A stretch of 64,000 nucleotides of DNA from Bacteroidia bacterium (GCA_017995075.1 JAGOJO010000008.1:1011-65010), one strand, 5' to 3'. Counted from the first letter of the stretch, positions 7,041 to 35,800 are shown. The notes: generated from the letters alone by a model not told the origin. Numbers and translations are program-made.

Positions 7041-7062
7041 GGTTTTTTTTGAATCTTTAACC

Positions 7063-7094
7063 GTCAACCACTCAAAAATCCGGTCATCCACTCA
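7063..7094 (+). promoter_or_regulatory. Direct-repeat element (2 x CCACTCA, 20-bp period) upstream of the sensor kinase/LytTR operon
   Basis: The sequence is GTCAACCACTCAAAAATCCGGTCATCCACTCA. The heptamers sit at 7068-7074 and 7088-7094. It matches 13628-13659 at 25 of 32 positions without gaps (counted by hand). It ends 72 nt before ATG 7166. Confidence 0.4.
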
Positions 7095-7165
7095 GGATAT
7101 CTGCACTTGACACCGTTGCGACCACGAAATATTGACAGGATCGTTTAATTTTATCATCCTGCCAA

Positions 7166-13716: not shown

Positions 13717-14007
13717 ATGAGCCAATACTTTGTATTTAAGCCCGCTGAAGTGCATCCCGGAACAGGTGAACCGCTGGAAGGAAAGTTTATCCGGATTGCA
13801 ACTTATGATGCAAAACTGGCTACTGAAATCTTTAAATCAAGATACGGGAAGGTAGAAGCATTGCAGTTCTGCTACGATGGTTTTGATTCTATGGAAATGA
13901 TTTTGAATAAAACAGAACTGGAAACATTAATACTCACTTCCTCTGGAGTATGTAGCATACTAAACGGGAATGAAATCCAATCATTTATACGCAACTCCGC
14001 CAACTAA
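13717..14007 (+). CDS. Small cytoplasmic hypothetical protein (96 aa), first gene of locus A
   Basis: The track ORF begins at TTG 13687; the first ATG is 13717 (MSQYFVFKPAEV...). No signal peptide. Its stop is 4 nt before the next ATG (14012), which suggests co-transcription. Coding status is not independently supported. Confidence 0.45.
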   Translation: MSQYFVFKPAEVHPGTGEPLEGKFIRIATYDAKLATEIFKSRYGKVEALQFCYDGFDSMEMILNKTELETLILTSSGVCSILNGNEIQSFIRNSAN

Positions 14008-14011
14008 TCTG

Positions 14012-16252: not shown

Positions 16253-16295
16253 AACGCAGAATAATAAAAACAGGAAACAATTTATTCTATATCCA

Positions 16296-17834
16296 ATGTT
16301 CAATCAAACTACTAAAATACTGCTTGTATTTGCGCTCATCATTTTATCCGCAACCGGCAAAGCACAACAACTATCGCTGAACAGCACGAATGTGTTTATT
16401 CATAACACAGCTACGATGTATGTCAGTGGGGATATTAAAACTACTGGTACAGGTTTATTTAATCTCGAAGGAGAGCTTGAATTTACCGGCGACCTCGATC
16501 ATCAGGGAGCTCCGGGTGCCTTTACGGGTGATGGTACAGTAGTACTCTCCGGCGGAGCGCAGCAGCTGGATGGTGTGCAACCAATTGATTTTCCTTCTTT
16601 AGTTCTAAATGGCGCAGGAGATAAAACGTTACTTCGCTCTGTTTCTGTAGGTGGCAGCTCCAATGCCGGGCAGCTTGATCTTCAGCAGGGAACTCTTGTA
16701 TTAAATAATTTCAATCTGTATATCCGGAATGCTGCAGCAGCAGCCATTAATTTCACAAACGGAAGTATACGAGCTGAAGATGTTGATTTTAACAGTAATG
16801 TTTACTGGTACATCGGCACTGCAGCCGGAACGCATGTGGTACCTTTCTCTAATGATGCCGGAGTGATCATTCCAATGGCAATTGACAGGGTGGCAGGAGA
16901 TGTGGATACTGTTCGCTTCTCAACCTATGCCACCAATCCGGCGAATAATCCATTGCCGAATTCTCCTATAACTGTTACGCATATCCGAAATACGAGCGGT
17001 GTAGATAATAGTGCCAACACAGTTGATAGGTTCTGGTTAACACAATGGGATGACCCGGCTGCGCTTGTGCATCTGCGCTTTAACTATGCCACTGCAGAAG
17101 CGCCTGCAAATGGAAACAATAGCCCCAAAGCCCAGCGCTGGAATCCACTCAACGATGGTTGGGATTCACCGATGACCGGTCAGTTTAACTTGTCTCCTTA
17201 CAGTGTAAGTGTGCAGAATGTTGGAATGCCCGGCGTTTGGGCGATTGCGAAAGATGGCAGCCCTTTACCAATTACGTTGCTTGATTTTAAAGCAAAAGCT
17301 AATAAGAAAGGTGAAGTTGATTTAAGCTGGATTACATTGAATGAAAAGGATAATGATTATTTTACAATTGAGCGTTCGAAAAATGGTATAGACTTCGAGC
17401 CTGTTCTTCAGTTAGATGGTGCAGGTACTTCTGCGGTTCCTTTGTTTTATTCAGCAGTAGATAAAAAGCCGTTGAATGGTCGATCTTACTATAGATTGCG
17501 TCAAACAGATTATAACGGAGAGTCGACTGTAACCGCAGCGCAATCTGTATATTTTTCAAATGGTGGTTATGTATCCGTTTCCACTTATCCGAATCCTGCT
17601 GTTGATCAGTTAACTTTTACCTTGGAAGCAGAATTTGATGAGCAGGCTGAGTTAACACTTGAAATTTTTACCGCATATGGACAAAGAGCGTTTATTGGAA
17701 GTCTGCAATCACTGGAAAGCAATACTGAAGGCTCGTTTAATTTGCCAGTGTCATCCTTTGCCCGTGGACAATATCTTTATCGAATACTTTCAGACTCAGA
17801 AGTTCTTGGAAGCGGCAAAATTATTTTACAATAG
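16296..17834 (+). CDS. Secreted T9SS cargo protein, paralogue of ORF 62360..63886
   Basis: ATG 16296 gives the signal peptide MFNQTTKILLVFALIILSATGKAQQ. Blocks shared with 62360..63886 are NTSGVDNSANTVDRFW, PLPITLLDFKA, NDYFTIERSKNGIDFE and YYRLRQTDYNG. The C-terminal T9SS sorting domain is YPNPAVDQLTF...GQYLYRI...GKIILQ. Confidence 0.75.
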   Translation: MFNQTTKILLVFALIILSATGKAQQLSLNSTNVFIHNTATMYVSGDIKTTGTGLFNLEGELEFTGDLDHQGAPGAFTGDGTVVLSGGAQQLDGVQPIDFPSLVLNGAGDKTLLRSVSVGGSSNAGQLDLQQGTLVLNNFNLYIRNAAAAAINFTNGSIRAEDVDFNSNVYWYIGTAAGTHVVPFSNDAGVIIPMAIDRVAGDVDTVRFSTYATNPANNPLPNSPITVTHIRNTSGVDNSANTVDRFWLTQWDDPAALVHLRFNYATAEAPANGNNSPKAQRWNPLNDGWDSPMTGQFNLSPYSVSVQNVGMPGVWAIAKDGSPLPITLLDFKAKANKKGEVDLSWITLNEKDNDYFTIERSKNGIDFEPVLQLDGAGTSAVPLFYSAVDKKPLNGRSYYRLRQTDYNGESTVTAAQSVYFSNGGYVSVSTYPNPAVDQLTFTLEAEFDEQAELTLEIFTAYGQRAFIGSLQSLESNTEGSFNLPVSSFARGQYLYRILSDSEVLGSGKIILQ

Positions 17835-17898: not shown

Positions 17899-18462
17899 CT
17901 ATTGTCCGGGAGGAACTGGTGCCGGAACAACATTGGCTATGGGTGGTAAACTCTTTAAGTAAGCGAAGATAGATCGTAAATCTTCGTCTGTTAGGTTCGC
18001 ATAACCTTGCCAGGGCATAAGTGGTAACAACATTCTTGTTCCCTCCATTCCCTTATACCATCCTTTACGCATGGCATTGAAGAATTGTTGTTCGGTCCAA
18101 TTCCCTATTCCTGTTACATCCGGAGTAAGGTTTGCTGCGAATGAAGTTCCCCAGGGACCTTTTGCTGCCGTTCCCATTGGGAAAAACAGAATCCAGTTTT
18201 TCGATGTAGCTGTATCTGATGGAGGTAATGGAATATTTCCGGGATGTCCCGATAACAAGAGCGCCGGATCAGGAACCGGACCTTGTTCAGTCATGATCTT
18301 TGGTGAGTGACAATCGTGACATCCTCCGATGGTTACCAGATACTTTCCACGTTCCAGACGGGTGGCTGTTGAATCACTTTCGCTGACTTTTTTTTCTGAT
18401 GCCGGAGGTGTACAGGAGTAAAGAAGACTCCCGGCGGCAAGAAGTAGAAGTAGTTTTTTCAT
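17899..18462 (-). CDS. c-type cytochrome lipoprotein
   Basis: 187 aa. Lipobox LLYSC. One haem-binding CxxCH motif (GGCHDCHSP). Confidence 0.7.
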   Translation of the reverse strand: MKKLLLLLAAGSLLYSCTPPASEKKVSESDSTATRLERGKYLVTIGGCHDCHSPKIMTEQGPVPDPALLLSGHPGNIPLPPSDTATSKNWILFFPMGTAAKGPWGTSFAANLTPDVTGIGNWTEQQFFNAMRKGWYKGMEGTRMLLPLMPWQGYANLTDEDLRSIFAYLKSLPPIANVVPAPVPPGQ

Positions 18463-18704: not shown

Positions 18705-18712
18705 TATTTTTG
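18705..18712 (+). promoter_or_regulatory. Candidate -7 promoter box (TAnnTTTG) abutting the start codon
   Basis: tatttttg is an exact match and ends 6 nt before ATG 18719. Confidence 0.35.
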
Positions 18713-18718
18713 CGCACC

Positions 18719-19165
18719 ATGTTGAAAGCAGCCCTTGTAAATCATTGTTTGTCCATATTAATGAATCGTGCTGCTTCAGCCGATAAACAGCTGCAGGATT
18801 TAAAAGAGGATCTTCAAGGAGAATCAAAAAGTTCAGCAGGAGATAAACATGAAACGGGCCGGGCAATGGTACAGTTGGAAATGGAAAAACTGGCTGATCA
18901 GCGTAAGGATTTGCAGTTGAAACTGGACCAATGGAGTAAAATCGATTTTTCCAGAGAAGGAAATCGCATAGAAACAGGAAGTCTGGTAATGACAGATTCA
19001 GGAAGTTTCCTGATTGCGATAGCACTTGGATCGATTGAATTTGACAAAAGCGCCGTGGTGGTTTTAAGTCCTCAATCTCCACTTGGCATTAAACTAATGG
19101 GTAAGGTGCCGGAGGATCAGGTGGAGGTTAATGGTCGTAAATTCACTATTAATTCAGTTTTGTAG
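18719..19165 (+). CDS. GreA/GreB-like small coiled-coil protein (uncertain family call)
   Basis: The track start 18710 is TTG; ATG 18719 gives MLKAALVNH.... The N-terminal half is a charged coiled-coil (DLKEDLQGESKSSAGDKHETGRAMVQLEMEKLADQRKDLQ). The C-terminal half is a small beta domain (GSLVMTDSG...VLSPQSPLGIKLMGK), resembling the Gre-factor C-terminal arrangement. Confidence 0.4.
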   Translation: MLKAALVNHCLSILMNRAASADKQLQDLKEDLQGESKSSAGDKHETGRAMVQLEMEKLADQRKDLQLKLDQWSKIDFSREGNRIETGSLVMTDSGSFLIAIALGSIEFDKSAVVVLSPQSPLGIKLMGKVPEDQVEVNGRKFTINSVL

Positions 19166-19203: not shown

Positions 19204-19237
19204 TTTGAGATATGTCGGCTGGCTGACATATCTCAAA
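19204..19237 (+). promoter_or_regulatory. 13-bp perfect inverted repeat (candidate operator or RNA hairpin) in front of the eight-gene operon
   Basis: tttgagatatgtc (19204-19216), then 8 nt, then gacatatctcaaa (19225-19237). No T-run follows. It ends 24 nt before ATG 19262. Confidence 0.45.
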
Positions 19238-19261
19238 TGATTCCGGGTCTACTTTAGCGGC

Positions 19262-19747
19262 ATGAAACAGACTATTTATTTATCAAAATGGATCTTTTTG
19301 ATTCTGCTGGTAGGATTATTTTCTATTAGAGCATATGCACAGGACGACACTCAGCGCAAGAAGCATTTTAATATTGCTAAGTCGGGATTTGTAATAGATG
19401 GATATGATCCGGTCGCCTATCAGACACAAAAGCGCGCCATTAAGGGTGATCCTTCAATTTCAGTGATTTATAAAGGTGTAAAATATGCATTTACATCTAC
19501 CGCCAACCGTGAATTATTCAAGTCAAATCCCGGGAAATATGAGCCAGCATATGGAGGTTGGTGTGCTTATGCAATGGGATACTCCGGCGAAAAGGTGGAG
19601 GTTGATCCGGAGACGTTTAAAATAATTGACGGTAAAACATATTTATTCTACAACTTCTACTTCAACAACACTTTGAAATCCTGGAATAAGGATGAAAAGA
19701 ATCTTCACTTAAAAGCAAATCAAAACTGGATGAAAATCATCCCATAA
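19262..19747 (+). CDS. Secreted YHS-domain protein
   Basis: 161 aa with a signal peptide (WIFLILLVGLFSIRAYAQ). The block GYDPVAYQTQKRAIKGD...YKGVKYAFTSTANRELFKSNPGKYEPAYGGWCAYAMG is typical of the YHS-domain (seleno)protein family. Confidence 0.65.
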   Translation: MKQTIYLSKWIFLILLVGLFSIRAYAQDDTQRKKHFNIAKSGFVIDGYDPVAYQTQKRAIKGDPSISVIYKGVKYAFTSTANRELFKSNPGKYEPAYGGWCAYAMGYSGEKVEVDPETFKIIDGKTYLFYNFYFNNTLKSWNKDEKNLHLKANQNWMKIIP

Positions 19748-19752
19748 CTAAA

Positions 19753-20154
19753 ATGGAAAAAATACATTCACCATTGAAATGGATTGCACGCATTCTTGCC
19801 GCAGTAATTATGTTACAAACTTTATATTTTAAATTCACAGGAGCTGAAGAATCAGTGTACATCTTCTCTACTCTTGGTCTTGAGCCATACGGTAGAATTG
19901 GAACCGGTATTGGTGAGTTAATTGCTTCTGTGTTGATTTTGGTTCCGGCTACTACATGGGTCGGAGCGGTTATGGCTCTTGGTTTGATGAGTGGCGCTTT
20001 GTTTTTTCACATTACCAAGCTTGGTATAGAAATAATGGGAGACGGAGGGCAGCTTTTTTATTACGGGATTGCTGTCTTTTGTGCAGCCGCATATCTGCTG
20101 ATCATGGAGAGAGAAACAGCACAATCATTCGTAGCTAAACTCCTTAAAAAATGA
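19753..20154 (+). CDS. DoxX-like small membrane protein
   Basis: 133 aa with four hydrophobic helices. Size and pattern resemble DoxX-family proteins, and it starts 5 nt after the YHS gene. Confidence 0.5.
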   Translation: MEKIHSPLKWIARILAAVIMLQTLYFKFTGAEESVYIFSTLGLEPYGRIGTGIGELIASVLILVPATTWVGAVMALGLMSGALFFHITKLGIEIMGDGGQLFYYGIAVFCAAAYLLIMERETAQSFVAKLLKK

Positions 20155-21098
20155 AATTATTTTCAATCACTATACTCCTTTTCCTCCTGATTACCGGAGA
20201 TGTGAAAGCACAGGGATGCAGTGATGCAGGTGTTTGCAGTGTCAGTGGAGCAGCACAACCTATGACAGACTCAACAAACACAAATCAGGATGTTTCGGCA
20301 TTATTTATTTTCCGTACAACTACTTCTGTTTCATCCGGGGAACAGGGAGTATTGACTTTGCAGGAAATTCCGGAAGTGGAATATTATATTTCGAAAAGAA
20401 TTCAGTTGGTCACCAGAATTCCATATATTATCAATGCCGGAAATTTAGGTACTACATCAGGCATCGGAGATCCTTATATTGGGATTTCAGCACAGGTTTA
20501 TTCTTCAGAGGAAAATAAGGTATCGATTTCCGGTGGATACAAAATACCTTTCGGGAAAACAGATATTCGTGATGCGGGAAGAAGTTTACCAATGCCATAT
20601 CAAACTGGATTAGGAACATCAGATGGACTCTTTGGTGCAGTCTGGGTAAAGAAGCGTTTACGTGTCGCAGCTGTTTACCAGCATGTTTTTAAACAGCAGA
20701 ATAAAAATGAATTTCTTCGCAGCCGTTGGGAGGGAATAAAAAAGGCACAAACGTACTTTGAGTCGAATGAGTTGAAAAGAGGAAACGATTTATCATTAAG
20801 ATTTGACTATGAGTTTAACTGGAAGAAGGGGAAAATATATACCGGCATTTTATCTATTTACAGGTTAACAGAAGATAAAATTACTGACCTTAGCGGAGAG
20901 GTAAATCAGGTAAAAGGATCTGGAGGATTAACACTCAATATAACTACAAGCGCCTTCTATCAGTTTACTCCAAACCAGCGATTAACTGCGCAATTTGGAT
21001 TTCCGGTCGTTGTTCGGGAAGTAAGACCTGACGGACTTACCAGGTCTGCAGTAATCAATTTAATTTATGCAATAAGAATTAATAAAAAATCAAAATGA
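20151..21098 (+). CDS. Putative outer-membrane beta-barrel protein
   Basis: 315 aa with signal peptide MKLFSITILLFLLITGDVKAQ. Alternating hydrophobic beta-strand patterns are seen. ATGA overlaps occur at both ends. Confidence 0.4.
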   Translation: MKLFSITILLFLLITGDVKAQGCSDAGVCSVSGAAQPMTDSTNTNQDVSALFIFRTTTSVSSGEQGVLTLQEIPEVEYYISKRIQLVTRIPYIINAGNLGTTSGIGDPYIGISAQVYSSEENKVSISGGYKIPFGKTDIRDAGRSLPMPYQTGLGTSDGLFGAVWVKKRLRVAAVYQHVFKQQNKNEFLRSRWEGIKKAQTYFESNELKRGNDLSLRFDYEFNWKKGKIYTGILSIYRLTEDKITDLSGEVNQVKGSGGLTLNITTSAFYQFTPNQRLTAQFGFPVVVREVRPDGLTRSAVINLIYAIRINKKSK

Positions 21099-21604
21099 TA
21101 CCATTGGCTGATAGTGCAGTATTAGTTTTAACGCAATTGCAACAGGTGCTTGATCAGATGAATGATCAGGAATACAGTAAAAAGTTACGAATATTAAATG
21201 AAAATACAATTGGAAAACATGTACGACATATTCTCGAGTTGTACGAATGTCTTGTTACAGGAACTCCGCAGCAAAGTGTAAATTACGACAAAAGGGAGCG
21301 CAACACGGCATTGGAAGAGGATGTCCTGTTTGCATTAGCTAAAATTGCGGAAATAAAAGAAGCAGTATTATTGATGGAAGATAAACCATTAACGTTATGG
21401 GCTGCATTCCATCAGGACAAAGATCTTATGCATAAAATTGACTCATCCGTGTTTCGCGAACTAGCTTATAATATTGAACATTCTATTCATCACATGGCTA
21501 TAATTAAAATGGCATTACTTGTAGATTTTCCATTAGTACAAACAGCCGAAGAGTTTGGAATTGCTCCTTCTACTATCAAATACCAGCAACAATGTGTACG
21601 GTAA
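21095..21604 (+). CDS. DinB-like four-helix-bundle protein (tentative)
   Basis: 169 aa and helical, with His-rich motifs HVRHILE and EHSIHHMAI spaced as in the DinB/YfiT-type metal triad. Recognition is weak. Confidence 0.4.
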   Translation: MIPLADSAVLVLTQLQQVLDQMNDQEYSKKLRILNENTIGKHVRHILELYECLVTGTPQQSVNYDKRERNTALEEDVLFALAKIAEIKEAVLLMEDKPLTLWAAFHQDKDLMHKIDSSVFRELAYNIEHSIHHMAIIKMALLVDFPLVQTAEEFGIAPSTIKYQQQCVR

Positions 21605-22299
21605 CCTATTTTCCCCTTGAACAGGATGGATATATTCTCACGTCGAGCCGGGATGAAAAAAGTGTTCGAGGAATCGCCCTTCCTCCCAGAAAATACCTTC
21701 TCGAACAGCAAACCGTCTTTTTTCCGAAGGATCCTGATGCCGGAGGAACATGGTTTGTAACAACGGGAAGAGATACCACTCTTTGCCTGCTAAACGGAGC
21801 TTTTACCAAACACGAACATGAACCACCATATAGAAAAAGCAGAGGCCTTGTTGTTTTAGATTATTTTAAGTTCAGAGATACAGAGGATTTTCGAACGAAT
21901 AATAATTTTCATGGTGTTGAGCCTTTCACTTTGGTTATTATTAAACCGGGAAGCCTTGTAGAATTTAAATGGGATGGTGAAAATACACATTGTAAAAACC
22001 TGAATTCTACTGTCCCCGCTATATGGTCATCGGTTACATTGTATGAACCGGAAGTCATTAACGCCAGACAAGAATGGTACCATCAATGGTTGCAGCAACA
22101 CCATGAAGATTCGCAGGAAAATCTGATGACTTTTCACCTTTTCGGCGGGAAGGGAGATGTGAGAAATAGTGTATTTATGAATAGGGAGAATAAAGTCCGG
22201 ACAGTAAGTATAACATCTATTTTTTCTAACAAGCAAGAGACCTGTTTACAGTATTCAGATGTATTGCAGGATAAAAAGTATAAGATCAGAATTATCTAA
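21592..22299 (+). CDS. NRDE/TANGO2-family protein (N-terminal Cys, Ntn-hydrolase-like)
   Basis: 235 aa. It starts MCTVTYFP and has SSRDEK at the position of the NRDE motif. Confidence 0.55.
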   Translation: MCTVTYFPLEQDGYILTSSRDEKSVRGIALPPRKYLLEQQTVFFPKDPDAGGTWFVTTGRDTTLCLLNGAFTKHEHEPPYRKSRGLVVLDYFKFRDTEDFRTNNNFHGVEPFTLVIIKPGSLVEFKWDGENTHCKNLNSTVPAIWSSVTLYEPEVINARQEWYHQWLQQHHEDSQENLMTFHLFGGKGDVRNSVFMNRENKVRTVSITSIFSNKQETCLQYSDVLQDKKYKIRII

Positions 22300-23381
22300 T
22301 GGATACACCGATTGGAAACGTAAGTGTTTATCGTACTATGCAATGGAAGAAACCTTTGTGGTTAATTCGGTTGATTAACTATGAATATTGGCCGTTTTGG
22401 ATATTATTCTTCCCGGCCTTTTTTTACTGGTTATATCTTGGATTTAAAGCGCGTTCGTTGGCCTATTTCAGTGCTGCGAATCCGGGAATTGAAAATGGAG
22501 GAGTTTTTGGTGAGTCTAAATCTGATATTCTGAAAATGATTCCGGATAAGTATAAACCGGCTTCTGTTTTAGTTTCTGAAAGTCTGCAACCTGCTGATTT
22601 AATTTCTTTATTTCATAAAACCGGATTTCAATATCCTGTCATCTGTAAACCGGATAAAGGAGAAATGGGATTTAAAGTAAAGAGGGTAGAAAATGAATCT
22701 GATTTGTTAATTTATCTGGAGGAGACGCCTGTTGATTTTCTTATCCAGGAGTTTATTACATGGAGCGAAGAATATGGTGTATTATACTATCGCCTTCCTA
22801 ATGGTAAATCGGGAATAAGTTCGCTCGTTGCCAAGGAATTTCTTTCGGTGACAGGTGATGGAGTTAATACTGTTGAAGAATTAATGAACTATTCTGACCG
22901 TGCAAGGTTGCAGTTAGATAATTTTAAAAGAGAGAGGCCGGCGCTATTGAGTATTGTTCCTGATAATGGACTAACCCTACAACTGGAGCCAATTGGTAAC
23001 CACTGCAGGGGTACAAAGTTTATCAATGCCAATAACAGTATTACCCCACAGATGGTCTCTGTTTTTGATGCAATTGCGAAAAATATGGATGGCTTCAATT
23101 ACGGTAGATTTGATCTGAAAGTAAAGCGAATAGATGATCTTTATACTGGTGAAAATATCAGAATAATGGAGGTGAATGGATGCACAAGTGAACCCGCACA
23201 TATTTATGGAGAGGATATGAACTTATGGAAGGTATACCGTGATATATTTTCCAATATGAAAATTGTAAATCAGATAGCAATCGCAAACCACAAGTTAGGA
23301 TACCCATATGTTCCAATTCGTAAAATTGTTACGGAGACCTTGCAACACTTCAAAATGAAACGAACTTCAAATGGTAAATAG
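22299..23381 (+). CDS. Membrane-anchored ATP-grasp ligase-like protein
   Basis: 360 aa. N-terminal TM WPFWILFFPAFFYWLYLGF. ATP-grasp hallmarks are VICKPDKGEMGFKV, FLIQEFI and RIMEVNG (the E-x-N Mg site). Confidence 0.6.
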   Translation: MDTPIGNVSVYRTMQWKKPLWLIRLINYEYWPFWILFFPAFFYWLYLGFKARSLAYFSAANPGIENGGVFGESKSDILKMIPDKYKPASVLVSESLQPADLISLFHKTGFQYPVICKPDKGEMGFKVKRVENESDLLIYLEETPVDFLIQEFITWSEEYGVLYYRLPNGKSGISSLVAKEFLSVTGDGVNTVEELMNYSDRARLQLDNFKRERPALLSIVPDNGLTLQLEPIGNHCRGTKFINANNSITPQMVSVFDAIAKNMDGFNYGRFDLKVKRIDDLYTGENIRIMEVNGCTSEPAHIYGEDMNLWKVYRDIFSNMKIVNQIAIANHKLGYPYVPIRKIVTETLQHFKMKRTSNGK

Positions 23382-23991
23382 TATCTTATCCTTTTCTATA
23401 GCGGCAGTTATTAGTTTTATTGGCTCACTTCAACCGGGACCTGTTAATTTACAGGTATTGTACTCCGGTTTTGCGGGTTCAAGGAAACAGGCTTTGTTAT
23501 GTGCTGCGGGGGGAATAGTACCTGAATTCGTTTATTGTGGTATGGCGATGTTTTTTCATGTAAGGCTACAAGCCTATCAGTTTGACTTTGCCTGGTTAAA
23601 GGTGGCTAATATTGGTGTTTTGTTGTTTATTGGCTTCTACCTTTTGAAAGTAATTTCATCGAAAGAGGCAACATCCTCCAATATGCACCCCGGATTTTGG
23701 TCTGGTTTCATTGCGGGTATGTTAAATCCTTTTTTACTGCCTTTTTGGCTTTTTGTAATATTTCAATCCGGGTATCTCGAATTCTTAACACTCAATGAGA
23801 TACCGGATCAGTTTGCATTTATCGCAGGAAGTGGAGCTGGGGCCTTCTTATTTTTATATGCGATGATTCTCATTGCTCCACGACTTCGCGATTCACTTGC
23901 AAAATTGAGTAAGCTTCCTTCCAATAAGATAATTGGTGTAATATGTATTATCTTAGCCCTAACTGAGATCATTCGTTGTTGCTATCTATGA
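23371..23991 (+). CDS. LysE-type exporter
   Basis: 206 aa with about 6 TM segments. The N-terminal LQPGPVN motif is typical of LysE/RhtB translocators. Confidence 0.55.
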   Translation: MVNSILSFSIAAVISFIGSLQPGPVNLQVLYSGFAGSRKQALLCAAGGIVPEFVYCGMAMFFHVRLQAYQFDFAWLKVANIGVLLFIGFYLLKVISSKEATSSNMHPGFWSGFIAGMLNPFLLPFWLFVIFQSGYLEFLTLNEIPDQFAFIAGSGAGAFLFLYAMILIAPRLRDSLAKLSKLPSNKIIGVICIILALTEIIRCCYL

Positions 23992-24665
23992 GTCAAGAAA
24001 CACAATACTGGTATCTGAGAAACCATAAGTTATTTTCGGTTCTTAGTAATATGCAAATTGAAGAGTTGTGTATTATGACCAAATATAAAAAAGCGGGCAA
24101 GGGAGAAATCATCTATTTTTCAGAGGACCCCGACCAACGAATTTATATTTTAAAGAAGGGGAATATTAAAATTGTGGAAGCGGATAATCAAGGGAATGAG
24201 ATTATAAAAGAAATTTTAATTCCGGGTGATTTATTGGGAGAGTTAACATCCAGCAATGAAAGTACCACCAGTGAATATGCCGTGGCCCTGTCGAAAGAGG
24301 TAATTATTTGTACTTTCAGAATGGCAGATTTTGAAAATTTGCTGGAGAAAAATCCGACAATCGCTTTAAGTTACAGTAAGCTTGTTGGCTGGCGATTTAA
24401 ACGGGTCAGGATTAATTATAGCAATCTGGTTTTTAAAGATGTAAAAACCCGGCTTAGACAGTTTTTTAGAGATTGGGCAAATCGGGAGGGAAAAAATATT
24501 GATGGCCATGTGCATCTGGATAATTATTTAACGCATCAGGATATTGCGGGTCTGGTTTGTTCGACGCGGCAAACAGTTACTCAGTTGATGAACGATTTAG
24601 AGGCTGAAAAACTAATTCGGTACAGCAGGAAGGAAATCATCATTGATGATATAAACAAATTATAA
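23988..24665 (+). CDS. Crp/Fnr-family transcriptional regulator
   Basis: ATG 23988 forms an ATGA overlap with the exporter stop. The cNMP-binding-like barrel shows GEIIYFSEDP...IYILKKGNIKI. The C-terminal HTH shows THQDIAGLVCSTRQTVTQLMNDL. Confidence 0.8.
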   Translation: MSQETQYWYLRNHKLFSVLSNMQIEELCIMTKYKKAGKGEIIYFSEDPDQRIYILKKGNIKIVEADNQGNEIIKEILIPGDLLGELTSSNESTTSEYAVALSKEVIICTFRMADFENLLEKNPTIALSYSKLVGWRFKRVRINYSNLVFKDVKTRLRQFFRDWANREGKNIDGHVHLDNYLTHQDIAGLVCSTRQTVTQLMNDLEAEKLIRYSRKEIIIDDINKL

Positions 24666-24675
24666 TATTCAATTA

Positions 24676-24715
24676 GATGAACCAGCAATTGTGTTATTTC
24701 AATTGCTGGTTCATC
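24676..24715. terminator. Bidirectional hairpin terminator between convergent genes
   Basis: A 16-bp perfect stem, gatgaaccagcaattg (24676-24691) / caattgctggttcatc (24700-24715), with an 8-nt loop, followed by tttatt. Confidence 0.8.
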
Positions 24716-24723
24716 TTTATTGA

Positions 24724-26895
24724 TCAATATTTCACCATACGTTCTACACGCTCCATTCCGGCAACATGAACACGTATGAAATATACTCCTTCTTCAAGAT
24801 TTTCGCCGATATTCATTTTATGCGCACCTCCGTTTAGTTGCATAACAGAAATGATTTTGCCATCAATGGAGGAGATCTCCATTAAACCGGTTTCATCGTC
24901 AGGCAATGTGATGTTCAGCTCAGTTGATTGATGGAATGGGTTCGGGTTAATCTGCACTTCTGGTCCGTTCAAAGCTACGCTGTCGCCGATTTTGCAATTT
25001 ACTGTTACCTGTACTGCTGAGGATGTTTTTGCACAACCTGTAGCAGTATTGGTAATATTCACGCGATATGCACCGGTGGTTTTTGCTACATATGAATTCG
25101 ATGTTGCTCCTGTTAAAGTAACATTGTTTCTGGTCCACTGGTAGGATAGGTTAGCGCCTGTGTTTGCTATGAGCACTACGCTGTCACCATTACAGAATGT
25201 AGTTGGCCCTCCTGCAGTGACATTTGCTGATGTATTGTTGGCAGTAACGGTAATGGAATTCGAAGTGCTGGTACAACCAAAACTATTGGTAGCAACAACT
25301 GTGTAGGTTCCGCTGGTTCCTGTCATGTAGGATGATCCTGTTGCACCTGGGACATCTACACCGTTCTTTTTCCATACGTAAGTAAGACCAGGATCTCCTG
25401 TAGTATTAAATGTTACACTTCCTCCAGTGCAGAAAGTGGTAGGACCATTGGCCGCTATATTAACAATAGGAAGAGGATTGATCGTTACAACTTTGGCAGC
25501 CGAGGTACTGGTGCCACAGGAATTGGTTACTTTAACTTTATAACTTCCGGAAGTATATGCTACATACATGGAGTCGGTTGCGCCATTGATGTTGGTACTT
25601 CCTATTTTCCATTGATAAGAGAGCCCTGCACCTGTATTTGCTTTCAGTAAAACTCCGTTTCCATTACATACTGAAGAGGAGCCCGGAACTGTTATAGTTG
25701 CTTTCGGTGTGTTCACAACAACAGGAATGATGTTGGATGTTTTGCTGCATCCAAAACCATTTGTCACTACAACTTTATAATCTGCACTTGCTTTCGCTGC
25801 ATAAGTGGAAGTAGTTGCACCGGCAATTGTGGTAAGGTTCTTCTTCCATGAATAAGTATATCCGTTTCCCTGACTTGCTGCTAAAACAACTGAGTCGCCC
25901 GGACAAAATGTAGTTGCGCCTCCTGCTGAAAGTATTGCTGTAGGTTTGGGATTTGCAGTTACAATTAATCCGGAAGAGGTATTGGTACAGCCAAAGCTAT
26001 TGGTAATTGTTACATAGTAAGTTCCTGTAGTTTTTGCCGTATAGTTTGCCGCAGTTGCCCCGGAAATATTGGCGGTGTTCTTTTTCCATTGATATGTTTG
26101 TCCTGCTCCTGTATTCGCAGACAGAACAACAGATCCCCCAGAACAGAAAGTGGTATTTCCACCAGCTGTAGTAGTAGCCTGAGGAGGGTTATTAACAGTG
26201 ATGTATGCGTTCTTAATAGTTGAATCGGTACCAGAGGCAGAAGTGGTTACAAGCGTAACCGGATAGGTGCCCGGTGAAGCATAGGCAACAGTTGGATTAT
26301 TGCCCGTTGAGGTTGCAGGAGAGCCACCGGTGAAATACCATTTTCTGGAAGTTAGTGTACCGGGTGTAGTATTGGTAAATTGAATGCTCTCTCCCGGACA
26401 GATAGAACTATCGTTCACAGTGAAAGATGCTTGTGAATAGGAATAAGCAAGATTGAGACTATTAATGTATGGATCATTGCAGCAGCTGCAACCCATTCCT
26501 GCAGGACAAGGATCCTGAACATACACCCGAAGCATAACTGATCCGTTTCCTGATTGAATAGCATTGTTCAAAGTAACAGCCGGAATTGTATAGCTGAAAT
26601 TTACAAAGCCACAGAAACTTGCAGCCGAACTTTGCACAAGTGTCTGGTAGTTTCCATTCAGATATATCTGCACGTTAATAGCAGGATTTGACATCCCCAC
26701 ATCCTGACATCCCAGCCAGCTGCAGGAAAGTGTACCGTTCGAGGCATTACCAGGAGTGTTGGTAAACACCACAGGAGTTGCCTGATACACGCTTTGCATG
26801 TTGGGAAGAGTTTGTGAATAGTTGCCTGTTTGCGCCAGAGCCGATCCGCTCATCGAAATGATAAACAGCACGATAGGGAGTAATATTTTGTTCAT
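24724..26895 (-). CDS. T9SS-secreted protein with a PKD domain and six Ig-like repeats
   Basis: The likely start is ATG 26895 (MNKILLPIVLFIISMSGSALAQ). There are six ~75-aa units of the type GG.TTFC.G.SV.L.A....G..Y.W..N...I.GAT...Y.A...G.Y.V..TN..GC..TS. The T9SS CTD is INPNPFHQSTEL...GVYFIRVH. Confidence 0.8.
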   Translation of the reverse strand: MNKILLPIVLFIISMSGSALAQTGNYSQTLPNMQSVYQATPVVFTNTPGNASNGTLSCSWLGCQDVGMSNPAINVQIYLNGNYQTLVQSSAASFCGFVNFSYTIPAVTLNNAIQSGNGSVMLRVYVQDPCPAGMGCSCCNDPYINSLNLAYSYSQASFTVNDSSICPGESIQFTNTTPGTLTSRKWYFTGGSPATSTGNNPTVAYASPGTYPVTLVTTSASGTDSTIKNAYITVNNPPQATTTAGGNTTFCSGGSVVLSANTGAGQTYQWKKNTANISGATAANYTAKTTGTYYVTITNSFGCTNTSSGLIVTANPKPTAILSAGGATTFCPGDSVVLAASQGNGYTYSWKKNLTTIAGATTSTYAAKASADYKVVVTNGFGCSKTSNIIPVVVNTPKATITVPGSSSVCNGNGVLLKANTGAGLSYQWKIGSTNINGATDSMYVAYTSGSYKVKVTNSCGTSTSAAKVVTINPLPIVNIAANGPTTFCTGGSVTFNTTGDPGLTYVWKKNGVDVPGATGSSYMTGTSGTYTVVATNSFGCTSTSNSITVTANNTSANVTAGGPTTFCNGDSVVLIANTGANLSYQWTRNNVTLTGATSNSYVAKTTGAYRVNITNTATGCAKTSSAVQVTVNCKIGDSVALNGPEVQINPNPFHQSTELNITLPDDETGLMEISSIDGKIISVMQLNGGAHKMNIGENLEEGVYFIRVHVAGMERVERMVKY

Positions 26896-27013
26896 TGGTA
26901 TTGGTTTGTGAGGATGCAATATAGATCAAAAATCCTACATCAGAAAATGATTTTAGTAGGGTATTTCTACCGAATAAAAGAAAAAAAAGCCGCATTTGAA
27001 TCTTTATTCCCTC

Positions 27014-27068: not shown

Positions 27069-29957
27069 TTATTCCACCACCACTTTCTTCACTCCGGTAC
27101 CTAATGGTGTTTCCAGTTCCAACATATAAATACCGGCTGGTAATCCGGTTAATCCAACGCGCACTACAGTATTGGTGTTTTGCGGTGCCTCTGTATATAA
27201 CAACTGCCCTTGCATATTCAATAACCGCAAACGGTTCACCTTCATCGCTCCCGGATTCATCACATTGAATGTTCCATTTGATGGGTTTGGCTGTATGCTG
27301 AATGCTGTTGATACGGGATCGTAAAGACCAACAACAAAGTTTACAACTACCGTGTCGGTTGACGTACATCCATCGGCGTTAGTAACAACTACACTATACG
27401 TTCCACCGGTTTGTATGCTGATTACCTGTGTTGTGAAACCATTAGACCAGTTATATGCGATTCCACCATTGCCTGCATCCAGTACCAGGGTTTGCCCGAT
27501 AAACAATGTAGTGTCGTTACCGAGCGAAACCACGGGCAAGCCGCTAATACTAAACGTGGATGTTACACTGTCGTTGGCGCAGGTATAGAGCGGATCAACA
27601 TAAGTCGTGAAAAACATATCGCCTGAACCGAAAATTTGTGCGTAGTTGCAATTTCCGTCCGGGTAATTGTCCGTAGATGTCAGATAGATGATACCATTGG
27701 TGACGGGGATGATGGCCGCAAAGCAGAAAGTGTACATGCTATCCTGATAAATCCAAATCGAGTCTCGATCTAACCATACATTGGTATTATAATATCCGTT
27801 TCCACCAATTCCAACTGAATCGCTGTATAACAATAAACCGCTTGTGTCAGGCCCAGCAAATACTCTGAATAACGCACGGGCGGTATCATTACTTGCCCAG
27901 CGGAAATATATCTGATTCAGATAGCCCGTCATTCCGGCTTTGAATGACTGGAAAATCGGGAAGTTGTTCCCAACCGGAAGTAAATCTGCCGATGTTGTAT
28001 CTATCGTCGTTTGATCTACCTGGTTAAAATAAGGTAAGCTATCTTTATATACATAATTTAAGGTATGCGTACCCGGACCAAGTATACTGAAGTCAATTGT
28101 ACCACCGGTAAGAGTGTCTCCATTCAGATACATTGTACCGCCGGAAGGAGAGCCGGAGACTCCTGTCGCCACTGCATCAACACAGTAAACACTATTGAGT
28201 GGAGAGATTGTTACATCATCATCTTTTATGTTTACAAGTGCCATTGTATCACTCTGACATCCGTAGCGATCAGTAACTGAATAACTGACTGCGTGTAATC
28301 CTGTACCAAATGCTGCTGGATTTATTACACTGTCAGGGTTAAAATTGATAAGCATATCACCACCGGAAGGCCTTCCGTAGAGTGTAAAGGCCGGTGCTGT
28401 TATACATACTTCAGGAACAAAATCTTCAAAACCGGGTTTATTGGGATGAATAACAGTAAATCCGATATAGGCATTGTTTCCGCAATTACTTTCATACGGG
28501 AAGATGCGTGTGACAAAGGCGAAATCTGTCAGCGAATCACCTTGTCCCATGTCATAGCGGTCTGAGAAGGATCCGTGAACAGCTGTTGGTGTGCTGAACA
28601 CAATCTCATACGTATAGGTGTTACCGTTAGTAACCGGAAGCACTGAATCGAGATCGAGGTCATACCATTTCGTAATAACATCTGCAGGGAGATTAATCGT
28701 GTCTTCCGCCAGAAGTGTTCCGCCAACAGGTCCGAGATATATTCTGAGTGTAACATCCTGCTGGGTGGGATTATCCAGATAAACCGAGATTCCACTCAGG
28801 TCAGCGGTGATTCCGGCAGTGAAACTTTGTGCGCAGGTACTCAATAACAACGATGTGTCAGGATATGTCGCATACTGATCAGTACTGCTAACGGTATCGG
28901 ATATCCCCGGAAGTGAATAGGTGATAAGATGATTTCCCGCTTCAGCCTGTGAAGGTGAAAAAGTATTTCCACTTACACCCGGACCACTGAATGTTCCGCC
29001 TGCGGGAGTGGCAGATAATGTAATGTCTGCATCGTAAAAGCAAAATCTCCTCTCGGTATTGTCAACAACCATATTCAGAGCTCCGCTGCGCAGGTAGTAA
29101 CGAATATTGTCGAGGCAAAAACGCACCTGATCGAGTTGTTGAGGAGAGAATTGATTGTAGCAGGAATACGGAGCGTACGACATTATATTTCTTGTGTCGG
29201 GCTGAAAGAGATCGCCGTTTGCGTCAGTATAAACAGTATCTGTGTAATTACACAAACTATCTACACGGCCAGGCACTGCGCTCAGAATCGGATCTGCAGG
29301 CGTGTCACAAATAAAATCACCAGTGGTTGCGCAATTACTGCCATTCACCAGTTCATCTGTACCCACTGGTCCGGCCATGTTTGCATGAGTATGTGGAAGC
29401 GAGAAGACATGTCCGAGTTCATGTGCGAATATTCCGCCTGTTTGTTGAATCGGAAAGTTTGGACTGAACAAATAACTTACCAGGTATATTTGATCCGGAC
29501 TTCCGGGAGAAGGGAATGTTGCGGCACCTGCTGCGAAAGGAATATCAAATGTTGTATAAACGTTGATATTGCCATCTCGATCATAATTGTCGGCCATCAT
29601 ATTTGTAAATCCCGGACCCCATCCGGTCATATTATCCGGAAGAAAAACATAATCAAATCCACAGATAGTGAAATGCATGTTCGCTGGTGCAAAGTACTGG
29701 TTTGCTATATCAACCATCTGTTGCAATTGCGCCGGAGTAGATGTGGGTGTTTTATCTACCACAATAATGTGCATGAACAAGGAGATCGACCGATAGGGAT
29801 ACGACGTACCTCCGCGTAAGGCATTGGCAGCGGCTCGTTGTTGTTGCCATTGCCGAAGAATGGAGGGATCGGGATCAGGTGTGAGGCAGGTTCTGTGCTG
29901 AGCATGAACGTGCAGTCCCAGCAGAAGTGCCAGGGTAATCAGGATGGATGTTTTCAT
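27069..29957 (-). CDS. T9SS-secreted metzincin-type zinc metalloprotease (M43/pappalysin-like)
   Basis: 962 aa with signal peptide MKTSILITLALLLGLHVHAQ. The zinc motif HELGHVFSLPH is encoded at 29391-29423 (verified on the reverse strand). The T9SS CTD is IQPNPSNGTF...GIYMLELE. Confidence 0.75.
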   Translation of the reverse strand: MKTSILITLALLLGLHVHAQHRTCLTPDPDPSILRQWQQQRAAANALRGGTSYPYRSISLFMHIIVVDKTPTSTPAQLQQMVDIANQYFAPANMHFTICGFDYVFLPDNMTGWGPGFTNMMADNYDRDGNINVYTTFDIPFAAGAATFPSPGSPDQIYLVSYLFSPNFPIQQTGGIFAHELGHVFSLPHTHANMAGPVGTDELVNGSNCATTGDFICDTPADPILSAVPGRVDSLCNYTDTVYTDANGDLFQPDTRNIMSYAPYSCYNQFSPQQLDQVRFCLDNIRYYLRSGALNMVVDNTERRFCFYDADITLSATPAGGTFSGPGVSGNTFSPSQAEAGNHLITYSLPGISDTVSSTDQYATYPDTSLLLSTCAQSFTAGITADLSGISVYLDNPTQQDVTLRIYLGPVGGTLLAEDTINLPADVITKWYDLDLDSVLPVTNGNTYTYEIVFSTPTAVHGSFSDRYDMGQGDSLTDFAFVTRIFPYESNCGNNAYIGFTVIHPNKPGFEDFVPEVCITAPAFTLYGRPSGGDMLINFNPDSVINPAAFGTGLHAVSYSVTDRYGCQSDTMALVNIKDDDVTISPLNSVYCVDAVATGVSGSPSGGTMYLNGDTLTGGTIDFSILGPGTHTLNYVYKDSLPYFNQVDQTTIDTTSADLLPVGNNFPIFQSFKAGMTGYLNQIYFRWASNDTARALFRVFAGPDTSGLLLYSDSVGIGGNGYYNTNVWLDRDSIWIYQDSMYTFCFAAIIPVTNGIIYLTSTDNYPDGNCNYAQIFGSGDMFFTTYVDPLYTCANDSVTSTFSISGLPVVSLGNDTTLFIGQTLVLDAGNGGIAYNWSNGFTTQVISIQTGGTYSVVVTNADGCTSTDTVVVNFVVGLYDPVSTAFSIQPNPSNGTFNVMNPGAMKVNRLRLLNMQGQLLYTEAPQNTNTVVRVGLTGLPAGIYMLELETPLGTGVKKVVVE

Positions 29958-30105
29958 TTCAACGCGTGTTTAAAGAAAAGCGAATATTGCCTTTCAGGAG
30001 TGAAAGTTAAAAATATTTCCATTTCTACAGAAGATACGGTTGAAAAAATCTTTCAGATTTGGTTGCTTTTGGAGACAGGAGCCGTCTATATCGGTACATT
30101 TGTCT

Positions 30106-30582
30106 ATGAAATCCCCTATCGCCCGGTTGCTGATCTCCCTGTTTATTCCACTTTTATGCGGAGGTGTGGCTGGCTTTTTCACGGCAGAGGCTATCCCCGA
30201 ATGGTATTCCACACTTCGGCAACCATCATTTAATCCACCGAATAATGTATTTGGTCCGGTATGGACACTATTGTATCTCCTGATGGGATATTCCTTTTTC
30301 CGGATATGGTCATTGCCGCTTACGAGCGAGAGGTCCAAAGCCATGCGGATATATTTTGTTCAGCTGTTTCTGAATTTCGGTTGGAGCTTTCTCTTTTTCT
30401 ATTTTCAGGAGATAGGATGGGCATTGCTGGAAATAGTCGTTTTATGGCTTTCGATTTTTACAATGATTTATCATTTTTACCGTTTGGATCGTTTAGCGGC
30501 CTATGTGAATATTCCATACATTCTTTGGGTTAGCTTCGCCTCGGCACTTAATGCTTCTTATTACCTGCTTAACAGTAATTGA
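30106..30582 (+). CDS. tspO: TspO/MBR tryptophan-rich sensory protein
   Basis: ATG 30106 gives MKSPIARLLISLFIPLLCGGVAGFFT. Conserved blocks are WYSTLRQPSFNPPNNVFGPVWTLLYLLMG and NIPYILWVSFASALN. Confidence 0.85.
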   Translation: MKSPIARLLISLFIPLLCGGVAGFFTAEAIPEWYSTLRQPSFNPPNNVFGPVWTLLYLLMGYSFFRIWSLPLTSERSKAMRIYFVQLFLNFGWSFLFFYFQEIGWALLEIVVLWLSIFTMIYHFYRLDRLAAYVNIPYILWVSFASALNASYYLLNSN

Positions 30583-30585
30583 TTG

Positions 30586-35554: not shown

Positions 35555-35800
35555 ATCAAAATATATTGATAAATGGAAGAATAATTTTAGTGAAACGTGG
35601 TTTTTAAACAATGAAATGTATGAGTATTCAGATTATTCAACACTCTCTTGTGCGAAAAAGACTTCATAGATTGAAATACCGGAGATGGTTTAACCCCGAG
35701 GTGTGAAAGTAATCTTGTCAGGCCTCGCTACGAAAAAACAAGGATTGATGTAAACAACTGGAAGAATAAAGGATTCTGTAATTATTCCTCAGGAGGTACT

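Follow-up and report, generated by a model that had tools for sequence, protein, structure and literature searches.

Several described bacterial systems resemble, each in part, the locus analyzed here: an eight-gene operon at positions 19262-24665 of a 64,000-nt stretch of DNA from a Bacteroidia bacterium (GCA_017995075.1 JAGOJO010000008.1:1011-65010), referred to below as the window. The operon encodes a YHS-domain protein, a DoxX-family protein, a putative outer-membrane barrel, a DinB-like protein, an NRDE/TANGO2 protein, an ATP-grasp ligase, a LysE exporter and a Crp/Fnr regulator. In the known detoxification routes that use bacillithiol or mycothiol, a DinB-fold transferase is followed by an amidase and then by export of the Cys conjugate, and bacillithiol-type thiols are the cosubstrates of DinB/YfiT transferases. 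Like these routes (BstA or MST; Bca or Mca), the operon combines a predicted DinB-fold metalloenzyme, a putative amide hydrolase and an exporter, appears to be linked to stress, and belongs to a phylum that uses bacillithiol-type thiols. Because Bacteroidetes use such thiols and not glutathione (PMC6282198), DinB/YfiT-type transferases are plausible in these organisms. The operon differs from the known routes in its hydrolase, which is of the TANGO2/NRDE Cys type and not a deacetylase-family amidase, in its obligatory ATP-grasp protein, and in the presence of a periplasmic YHS protein and DoxX in the same regulon.

The ergothioneine pathway brings together comparable parts: EgtB has a DinB domain, EgtC is an amidohydrolase with a Cys as N-terminal nucleophile, and EgtA forms amide bonds at the expense of ATP; EgtB N-domains were among the fold matches of our DinB-like protein. 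However, the cluster lacks the FGE-sulfatase domain, the methyltransferase EgtD and the pyridoxal phosphate-dependent lyase EgtE, and its hydrolase and ligase come from other families. The ATP-grasp protein shares its fold and the K-P..G.G, R-x-D and E-x-N motifs with GshF, cyanophycin synthetase and D-Ala-D-Ala ligase (Ddl), its nearest solved structures, but at only 15-20% identity and a template modeling (TM) score of 0.4-0.5; where those enzymes have a classical N-terminal substrate domain, it has a conserved aromatic hydrophobic segment, and among curated family models it reaches the cut-off of RimK alone, and that marginally. The TANGO2/HtpA proteins share with the NRDE protein the Pfam family, Cys2 and the NRDE-type motif, which is also found in eukaryotic TANGO2; their published roles are heme trafficking (disputed) or acyl-CoA binding, whereas here the gene lies between those for two putative enzymes.

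DoxX is found in clusters of envelope hypochlorous acid-stress regulons of Haemophilus and Neisseria, and the DoxX of Mycobacterium tuberculosis is part of a thiol oxidoreductase complex (PMC7907618). As in the operon, DoxX stands in these clusters (H. influenzae RpoE2, N. meningitidis SigE; M. tuberculosis DoxX-SodA-SseA) beside a periplasmic partner and uncharacterized cytoplasmic proteins under a dedicated stress regulator (PMC7907618). The partners there are DUF-type proteins and not YHS, DinB, NRDE or ATP-grasp proteins, and the regulator is an extracytoplasmic function (ECF) sigma factor instead of a predicted Crp/Fnr activator. The promoters of the operon and its relatives resemble class II CRP/FNR promoters, with a 16-bp 5-6-5 palindrome about 41.5 bp upstream of the start in place of an upstream promoter element. 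They differ in the half-site (TGTCR, versus TGTGA for CRP and TTGAT for FNR) and in the Bacteroidetes TAnnTTTG promoter type, and the regulator itself differs from CRP in having Gln for Glu181 and in lacking the Arg that contacts cyclic AMP (cAMP).

Each part of the operon belongs to a known superfamily and the class II Crp/Fnr logic is known; the combination is undescribed. The initial annotation of this DNA had not recognized the combination as a described system, and we likewise found none in the searchable literature, where no paper combined even three of DoxX, YceI, DinB, ATP-grasp and LysE and none was found that linked TANGO2/NRDE to an ATP-grasp in bacteria. We report here that the operon very probably represents, in compact form, a stress regulon conserved in Bacteroidota.

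Results

The eight genes form one translationally coupled unit

The open reading frame (ORF) listing of the window contains eight ORFs on the + strand within 19262-24665, followed by a hairpin:

19262-19747, + strand, YHS gene, encoding a secreted member of the YHS-domain (seleno)protein family in its Cys form
19753-20154, + strand, DoxX-family inner-membrane protein gene (Pfam match and hydrophobic segments)
20151-21098, + strand, putative outer-membrane beta-barrel gene (borderline Phenol_MetA_deg match)
21095-21604, + strand, DinB/YfiT-fold protein gene (fold-level match)
21592-22299, + strand, NRDE/TANGO2-family gene (PF05742)
22299-23381, + strand, putative ATP-grasp amide ligase gene (fold and RimK match)
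23371-23991, + strand, LysE-family exporter gene (PF01810)
23988-24665, + strand, Crp/Fnr-family regulator gene (cNMP_binding and HTH_Crp_2; alternative TTG start at 23976)
24675-24716, + strand, hairpin with a perfect 17-bp stem and an 8-nt loop, followed by TTTATTG

By these coordinates, a 5-nt gap (19748-19752) separates the YHS and DoxX genes, and every later junction is an overlap: 4-nt ATGA overlaps at 20151 (DoxX/barrel) and 21095 (barrel/DinB), 13 nt at 21592 (DinB/NRDE), the 1-nt overlap of a TAATG at 22299 (NRDE/ATP-grasp), 11 nt at 23371 (ATP-grasp/LysE) and an ATGA at 23988 (LysE/Crp), the last given that the regulator starts at ATG 23988 and not at TTG 23976. The same gene boundaries, including those of the 225-aa regulator, were called on three independent metagenome contigs that encode an identical ATP-grasp protein. 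The eight genes are translationally coupled and make up one unit bounded by a promoter-proximal palindrome and the terminator hairpin, and we infer that they are carried on a single transcript. The hairpin begins 10 nt past the operon end, between the operon and a convergent type IX secretion system (T9SS)/PKD gene, and is probably a bidirectional terminator.

The initial annotation had described an eight-gene operon with these junctions, all of which we reproduced from the ORF coordinates; the terminal hairpin, given there as 16 bp, has a stem one base pair longer that is still perfect. Its eight family assignments also stand, with the DinB assignment resting on fold and that of the barrel on a borderline match.

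The gene families are reciprocally co-conserved across Bacteroidota

With the ATP-grasp protein as seed, we scanned a single genome from each GTDB species and obtained at least 587 confirmed loci, the best 80 of which were analyzed. Almost all of these came from Bacteroidota (unclassified Bacteroidia, Cytophagales, Spirosomataceae, Roseivirga, Microscillaceae and Chitinophagales); Runella, Emticicia, Spirosoma, Arcicella and Roseivirga are examples of cultured carriers. For each of the 80 loci, we then recorded which cluster families have a member no more than 8 kb from the ATP-grasp gene. LysE was the commonest neighbor (54 loci), followed by the DinB-like (51), NRDE (44), YHS (38), Crp/Fnr (31) and DoxX (26) families and by the window-type barrel (10).

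The full eight-gene order recurs in at least five other species represented by metagenome-assembled genomes (L001-L004 and L007), whose ATP-grasp proteins are 51-57% identical to that of the window. In Roseivirga, an NRDE-DinB-YHS unit is divergent from ATP-grasp-LysE-Crp, and in Spirosomataceae the order is LysE-YHS-DoxX-ATP-grasp-Crp followed by DM13-barrel-YceI-DinB-NRDE. Since the linkage survives such rearrangement of gene order, it argues for a functional connection.

In the reverse test, a metagenome scan seeded with the DinB-like subfamily returned at least 548 confirmed loci, and we examined 23 loci of at least 12 kb. ATP-grasp was present in 22 of them, usually as DinB-NRDE-ATP-grasp or DinB-ATP-grasp. 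The gene families are thus reciprocally co-conserved across more than 150 loci.

The initial annotation had proposed that the genes form one functional module and had suggested conservation of the gene set across Bacteroidota as a check. The set does recur within 8 kb, with its order shuffled between lineages, and the module idea is borne out by co-conservation in both directions and by an upstream operator shared among units that are split in other genomes. The accompanying idea of a metabolite that is made and exported gained support from the ATP-grasp and LysE genes, which form the most conserved pair. In contrast, the suggestion that the module spans the whole envelope fared poorly: the window-type barrel is confined to 10 of the 80 loci, and the small barrel of other lineages is unrelated to it.

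Several families recur beside the cluster elsewhere and are absent from the window, namely YceI, a DM13 "electron transfer" domain protein and the unrelated small barrel. Two further regulon members are redox proteins. Family f17 (L004:1295-2317, L005 and L007) is a secreted thioredoxin-like protein that has a CPPC motif, a T9SS sorting tail, a weak match to the "Omp28-related selenoprotein" model and the palindrome directly upstream; family f47 (L049:3020-3604) is an AhpC/TSA redoxin that matches "SelL-related redox protein." Because the YHS, Omp28-like and SelL-like families all have such relatives, three regulon families are related to selenoproteins. The initial annotation had seen a redox/thiol flavor in the operon, and this impression is strengthened by the thioredoxin-like and AhpC/TSA-like members together with the GGWC motif of the YHS protein and the YfiT/mycothiol S-transferase fold of the DinB-like protein.

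Just upstream of the barrel-YceI-DinB unit, we also observed a family of about 238 aa (f22) with a HEMSH (HExxH-like) motif and no Pfam or NCBIfam match (L045:4674-5390; also L049, L064, L078, L079, L090, L108, L114, L132 and L147). It may be an uncharacterized metallohydrolase of the same system.

A palindrome with class II geometry precedes the regulon genes

Alignment of the regions upstream of YHS genes first brought out a palindrome. In the window, it stands just ahead of the operon together with a promoter box:

19213-19228, + strand, operator-like palindrome TGTCGGCTGGCTGACA (TGTCR-N6-YGACA, 16 bp), the sole match in the 64-kb window
19250-19257, + strand, -7 promoter box TACTTTAG of the Bacteroidetes type, 21 nt after the palindrome and 4 nt before the YHS ATG

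Because the -7 box lies only 4 nt before the ATG, the mRNA of the YHS operon is probably leaderless or nearly so; the same 34-35-nt geometry is seen at the ATP-grasp promoters in other genomes. Across 1.14 Mb of related loci, the strict TGTCR-N6-YGACA pattern had 37 sites, compared to 3.15 in shuffles, and nearly all were intergenic and 34-115 nt before start codons. Exact matches to the relaxed pattern TGTC-N8-GACA precede genes for YHS (18), ATP-grasp (15), LysE (5), the small barrel (4), the thioredoxin-like protein (3) and DM13 (3). Where the cluster is split, the YHS-DoxX, DM13-barrel-YceI-DinB-NRDE, ATP-grasp, LysE and secreted thioredoxin-like units all carry the palindrome. TAnnTTTG is the Bacteroidetes -7 promoter element, and the distance from the end of the palindrome to it was exactly 21 nt in most cases and 22 nt at ATP-grasp promoters with a recognizable box; this places the center of the palindrome about 41-42 bp ahead of the expected start. 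The independent DinB-seeded set served as a hold-out and contained nine strict sites, compared to 1.75 expected, seven of which had the 21-nt spacing; these sites were upstream of DinB, YceI, YHS and DoxX genes. Chance juxtaposition of unrelated genes was rejected on the strength of the co-conservation and the shared operator.

The regulator matches cNMP_binding (PF00027, 54.9 bits) and HTH_Crp_2 (PF13545, 46.8 bits) and no NCBIfam equivalog at its cut-off; its best solved relatives are GlxR, M. tuberculosis CRP, NtcA, CRP and CooA, with E values down to 1e-17. A CRP site has a 5-6-5 layout, as does the palindrome. Based on their co-location and the architecture of the sites, the cluster-encoded Crp/Fnr protein probably binds the palindrome, centered near -41.5, and acts as a class II activator. 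Its recognition helix carries an R194-Q195 pair that is invariant in 31 of 31 orthologues and that occupies the place of Arg180-Glu181 in CRP. Within the CRP family, these positions, 181 among them, are known to determine half-site specificity, and HcpR of Porphyromonas gingivalis has Gln at position 181 and an atypical motif (PMC1274295). No HcpR chain was among the solved-structure matches listed for the regulator. A TGTCGC-type palindrome as the target of Porphyromonas HcpR would raise the possibility that the present regulator senses NO or heme; this motif was not found in the accessible literature, and the connection remains a lead only. The regulator has neither an FNR-type N-terminal Cys cluster nor an Arg at the position of the cAMP-contacting Arg82 of CRP; its signal is probably not cAMP, and it may sense through Cys108, which is invariant in the sensor domain.

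A PAS-GAF sigma-54-dependent activator with a NorR/FhlA-type domain layout (family f8; e.g., L010:5775-7640) adjoins the cluster in 19 loci (f8 loci: L010, L012, L014, L016, L018-L025, L029, L030, L032, L039, L041, L054, L061 and L068). It is often divergent from YHS-DinB-NRDE. Since the strict palindrome is mostly absent from these lineages, the activator may provide a second regulatory input as an alternative. By eye, we saw no convincing sigma-54 -24/-12 element in the Roseivirga-type loci next to this activator.

The operator of the window lies inside a longer perfect inverted repeat with 13-bp arms, TTTGAGATATGTC (19204-19216) and GACATATCTCAAA (19225-19237), separated by an 8-nt spacer. 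This repeat is located 39 nt past the stop codon of the upstream GreA-like gene, for which it could double as a terminator; related loci have the 16-bp core only.

Envelope proteins of the operon

The YHS protein matched YHS_seleno_dom (NF041384) with 125.7 bits (cut-off, 70) and has a signal-peptide-like N-terminus by hydropathy. Among 42 orthologues, GYDPV.Y and YGGWCAY are conserved, and Cys101 of the GGWC motif is invariant. The initial annotation had ascribed to such proteins a redox-active motif that carries selenocysteine (Sec) in some species, in agreement with the invariant GGWC and with the listing of the family, with a GxU motif, among prokaryotic selenoprotein families (PMC13188914). 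Four Emticicia/Spirosomataceae loci (L042, L046, L051 and L056) contain two tandem YHS paralogues (e.g., L042:6285-6731 and 6750-7211); the first copy is about 38% identical to the protein of the window, and the palindrome precedes this copy only.

The DoxX gene follows directly after YHS in 26 loci. Its product matched the Pfam families DoxX (PF07681, 28.9 bits; cut-off, 23.6) and DoxX_2 (26.4 bits), and hydropathy showed several hydrophobic segments. For the barrel, the whole-protein score against Phenol_MetA_deg (PF13557) was 27.5 bits (cut-off, 22), no single stretch passed, and the match is marked "faint" in copies on metagenome contigs. After the signal peptide, at residues 20-30, the barrel carries QGCSDAG[VF]C, a Cys-x5-Cys pair or possibly a lipoprotein Cys plus a second Cys, which is invariant in 10 of 10 orthologues (the window, L001-L005, L007, L009, L013 and L071). 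This motif suggests a redox- or metal-active N-terminal plug. Homology between the window barrel and the small barrel of other lineages was considered and rejected: hmmsearch gave no hits, and hhalign gave a probability of 7%.

Putative cytoplasmic enzymes and the exporter

Against DinB_2 (PF12867), the DinB-like protein scored 19.0 bits, below the cut-off of 24.8, and its profile found no relative among PDB sequences. The AF2 model (predicted local distance difference test [pLDDT] score, 94.8), which has an extra beta-hairpin at residues 98-118, was more informative. Foldseek ranks 1-16 were all DinB/YfiT-superfamily entries (TM score, 0.47-0.64; E value, 1e-3 to 0.2; probability, about 1.0 for ranks 1-14 and 0.89-0.97 for ranks 15-16), and the top matches (TM score, 0.55-0.64) were BH3987, YizA, YfiT, DR0053, the M. 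tuberculosis mycothiol S-transferase and EgtB N-domains. Several of the matches were deposited as putative metal-dependent hydrolases or metal-binding proteins. Family invariants include H42, H45, H129, H132 and H133 along with E48, Y64, R67, R121, E122 and E128. The protein is probably a metal-dependent enzyme of the thiol-transferase fold, in which three of the five His residues may form the metal site.

The NRDE protein matched TANGO2/NRDE (PF05742) with 33.3 bits (cut-off, 22.6), and the same match was precomputed independently on metagenome copies; its profile found nothing meaningful among PDB sequences. Across 17 orthologues, M1-C2, R20, D21, E22, G52, T53, W54, N68, G69, S83, R84 and G85 are invariant, and the motif reads SRDE in the window and NRDE in the consensus. 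With Cys directly after the initiator position, the protein is probably a Cys-N-terminal-nucleophile-type hydrolase or transferase, and a catalytic role is also suggested because the gene lies between two putative enzymes. Bacterial TANGO2 homologues, including Shewanella HtpA and with Bacteroidota members in the tree, have been reported as heme-trafficking proteins (PMC10470608), a role that is disputed (PMC12782551), and TANGO2 has also been described as binding acyl-CoA in a manner dependent on the NRDE motif (PMC11867700). Acyl-CoA binding would agree with a pocket that takes a thiol-ester or an amide as its ligand.

The ATP-grasp protein reached 21.4 bits against RimK (PF08443; cut-off, 21) over residues 97-158 only and 17.2 against cyanophycin synthetase (TIGR02068; cut-off, 850), and it is a family distinct from RimK, cyanophycin synthetase, GshF and Ddl by their own thresholds. 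Its sequence profile extends to GshAB in the PDB (E value, 8e-4). With an AF2 model built from 74 homologues (pLDDT, 90.8; predicted TM score, 0.88), Foldseek returned 383 PDB matches at an E value of ≤0.001; the 50 matches listed are all ATP-grasp ligases, headed by cyanophycin synthetases 2 and 1 and GshF and then many D-Ala-D-Ala ligases. In the 74 sequences, K117-P, G121, G124, Q150, R270-x-D272, E291-x-N293 and G294 are invariant. By motif comparison, as distinct from structural superposition, we take the K-P..G.G, R-x-D and E-x-N motifs to correspond to K144, R255/D257 and E270/N272 of DdlB. Because these signature residues are invariant, the protein is expected to be an active carboxylate-amine ligase. 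All 1120 detectable relatives are unnamed or "hypothetical."

The N-terminus of the ligase (about residues 19-52) is aromatic-rich, hydrophobic and conserved, with a Kyte-Doolittle peak of 1.37 (threshold, 1.6). The initial annotation had called a membrane-anchored ATP-grasp protein; the fold upholds the enzyme class, while the hydropathy peak falls short of the anchor, and membrane anchoring is plausible. The LysE protein matched PF01810 over residues 17-198 with 44.1 bits (cut-off, 25.6) and has multiple transmembrane segments.

Discussion

At the level of the regulon, we are confident that the operon represents a conserved stress system of Bacteroidota in compact form. For its mechanism, we favor synthesis and export of a small molecule because no other pair is as conserved as ligase and exporter and because the N-terminus of the ligase is conserved and hydrophobic. 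In this scheme, an oxidative or electrophile signal at the envelope would be sensed by the regulator, the DinB-like and NRDE enzymes would prepare or recycle a small precursor, and the membrane-associated ATP-grasp ligase would form an amide bond between this precursor and an amino acid or amine. LysE would move the product to the periplasm, where the secreted YHS (Cys/Sec) protein, working with DoxX, would use it as a reductant or cofactor, as would thioredoxin-like, AhpC-like and DM13 proteins in other genomes; the outer-membrane barrels would give access to the cell surface. We hold the mechanism as a whole, from precursor handling to service of the periplasmic redox proteins, tentatively, with its chances somewhat short of even, and a thiol as the product is less probable again.

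A number of observations weigh against this scheme. None of the cluster genes identifies the substrate or marks the product as a thiol, a peptide or any other particular compound. NRDE is missing from a third to half of the loci, LysE from about a third and the window-type outer-membrane barrel from 70 of 80, and a classical transmembrane helix in the ligase N-terminus was not confirmed by hydropathy. The nearest ATP-grasp structures, at TM scores of 0.4-0.5, include polymer-forming cyanophycin synthetases and cell wall ligases, and TANGO2 homologues have been reported as heme- or acyl-CoA-binding proteins and not as enzymes (PMC10470608, PMC11867700). On the regulatory side, the strict motif is missing from Roseivirga-type and many hold-out loci, often with the sigma-54 PAS-GAF activator in its stead, and at some palindrome-bearing loci a search of the surrounding 8 kb gave no Crp gene.

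Of the other explanations, one would make the cluster a mercapturate-type detoxification route, in which the DinB-like protein conjugates a bacillithiol-type thiol to an electrophile or quinone, NRDE cleaves the conjugate, ATP-grasp religates or recycles the released moiety and LysE exports the Cys conjugate. The structural matches of the DinB-like model to YfiT, of the bacillithiol transferase family, and to the M. tuberculosis mycothiol S-transferase would fit, but at borderline E values (1e-3 to 0.1). The route would also agree with the bacillithiol derivatives made by Bacteroidetes (PMC6282198), with DinB-NRDE-ATP-grasp as the order of the tightest core, and with YceI and the Phenol_MetA_deg-like barrel, which point to hydrophobic ligands. 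However, known mercapturate routes acetylate before export and involve no ATP-dependent ligation, and ATP-grasp and LysE stay paired even where DinB and NRDE are absent nearby, so that the obligatory ligase partner of the exporter is left unexplained; we consider this route rather unlikely. The same ligase could instead add amino acids to the C-terminus of a peptide or protein, or build a cyanophycin-like or other poly-amino-acid chain, with NRDE as the matching peptidase. The best structural matches are indeed cyanophycin synthetases 1 and 2, the Pfam/NCBIfam matches are RimK-like and cyanophycin synthetase, and glutathionylspermidine synthetase/amidase provides a precedent for pairing an ATP-grasp ligase with a cysteine amidase. 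Yet the cluster contains no conserved precursor peptide ORF, the protein has only the ATP-grasp core without the other domains of CphA1, and a polymeric or protein substrate is hard to reconcile with the tight link to LysE, an exporter of small molecules. Tailing or polymer synthesis therefore seems distinctly unlikely.

Handling of metals or metalloids (Cu, Hg, Se or Te) would assign binding of the metal or Se species to the periplasmic YHS protein, reduction to DoxX and its partners, and the ion or its adducts to LysE and the enzymes. YHS domains are classed as metal binding (Pfam PF04945), the YHS, Omp28-like and SelL-like relatives all have selenoprotein forms, and the barrel has its invariant Cys-x5-Cys. 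The YHS protein, however, lacks the canonical YHS/TRASH Cys ligands, its sole invariant Cys being that of GGWC; the regulator is of the Crp/Fnr type and not MerR, ArsR or CsoR; the exporter matches LysE proper; and the ATP-grasp, DinB and NRDE enzymes go unexplained, all of which makes this role improbable. Heme trafficking or cytochrome maturation, with NRDE acting like Shewanella HtpA and the regulon supporting envelope hemoproteins, appears highly improbable. It could draw on the reported heme trafficking by TANGO2 homologues, with Bacteroidota in the tree (PMC10470608), the DM13 "electron transfer" domains of the regulon, a cytochrome c gene about 0.8 kb upstream of the operon and the fact that some Crp/Fnr regulators are heme sensors (PMC12750200). 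Against this, no ccm or heme synthesis genes are co-conserved, the cytochrome c gene is outside the conserved set, TANGO2 has a disputed part in heme biology (PMC12782551), and the invariant Cys2/RDE residues and the obligatory ATP-grasp and DinB partners find no explanation.

Returning to synthesis and export, a sharper version would have the DinB-like/NRDE/ATP-grasp/LysE core make and export a novel low-molecular-weight, probably thiol-bearing, amide, with the TANGO2 protein as a Cys2-dependent amidohydrolase or transferase. We think this version unlikely to hold in full; if true, it would provide the first enzymatic function for the TANGO2 family. TANGO2 is a human disease gene whose biochemical function is disputed between heme trafficking and acyl-CoA binding, and a bacterial homologue encoded between two putative enzymes, near an amide ligase and an exporter, offers a tractable system for asking if the family is catalytic. 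More broadly, the cluster is a widespread (at least 587 ATP-grasp and 548 DinB-like loci), reciprocally linked, co-regulated and undescribed system of environmental Bacteroidota; in this phylum, little is known about envelope stress or the biology of low-molecular-weight thiols. With TGTCR-N6-YGACA as a new candidate Crp/Fnr-type operator, placed as in class II promoters, the regulon can readily be mapped across whole genomes and tested by reporter fusions.

Flanking genes and other features of the window

The genes that flank the operon, for GreA-like, cytochrome c-like and T9SS cargo proteins, are unrelated to it and are not co-conserved with the cluster in that position:

17899-18462, - strand, small cytochrome c-like lipoprotein with a CHDCH heme motif, about 0.8 kb upstream of the operon
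18710-19165, + strand, GreA/GreB-C-terminal-like protein of 151 aa, just upstream of the operon

In L001 and L003, a member of the GreA-like family (f30) lies about 5 kb beyond the downstream end of the cluster; the position of this family is not conserved. The operon is surrounded by genes for four large secreted proteins with T9SS C-terminal sorting domains (16242-17834, 24724-26919, 27069-29957 and 32732-35611), which contain PKD/Ig repeats and an M43-like metallopeptidase.

An Rfam scan of the whole window gave no riboswitch and no other RNA family, a tRNA scan found none, and a 760-aa ORF at 13970-16252 had zero Pfam matches. A sigma-70-type promoter scan found fewer sites than in shuffles, this model being uninformative for Bacteroidetes. 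Outside the operon, a TspO/MBR tryptophan-rich sensory protein gene (162.7 bits) abuts a transglutaminase-core gene at 30582/30583 (pair, 30040-31728), an unusual combination.

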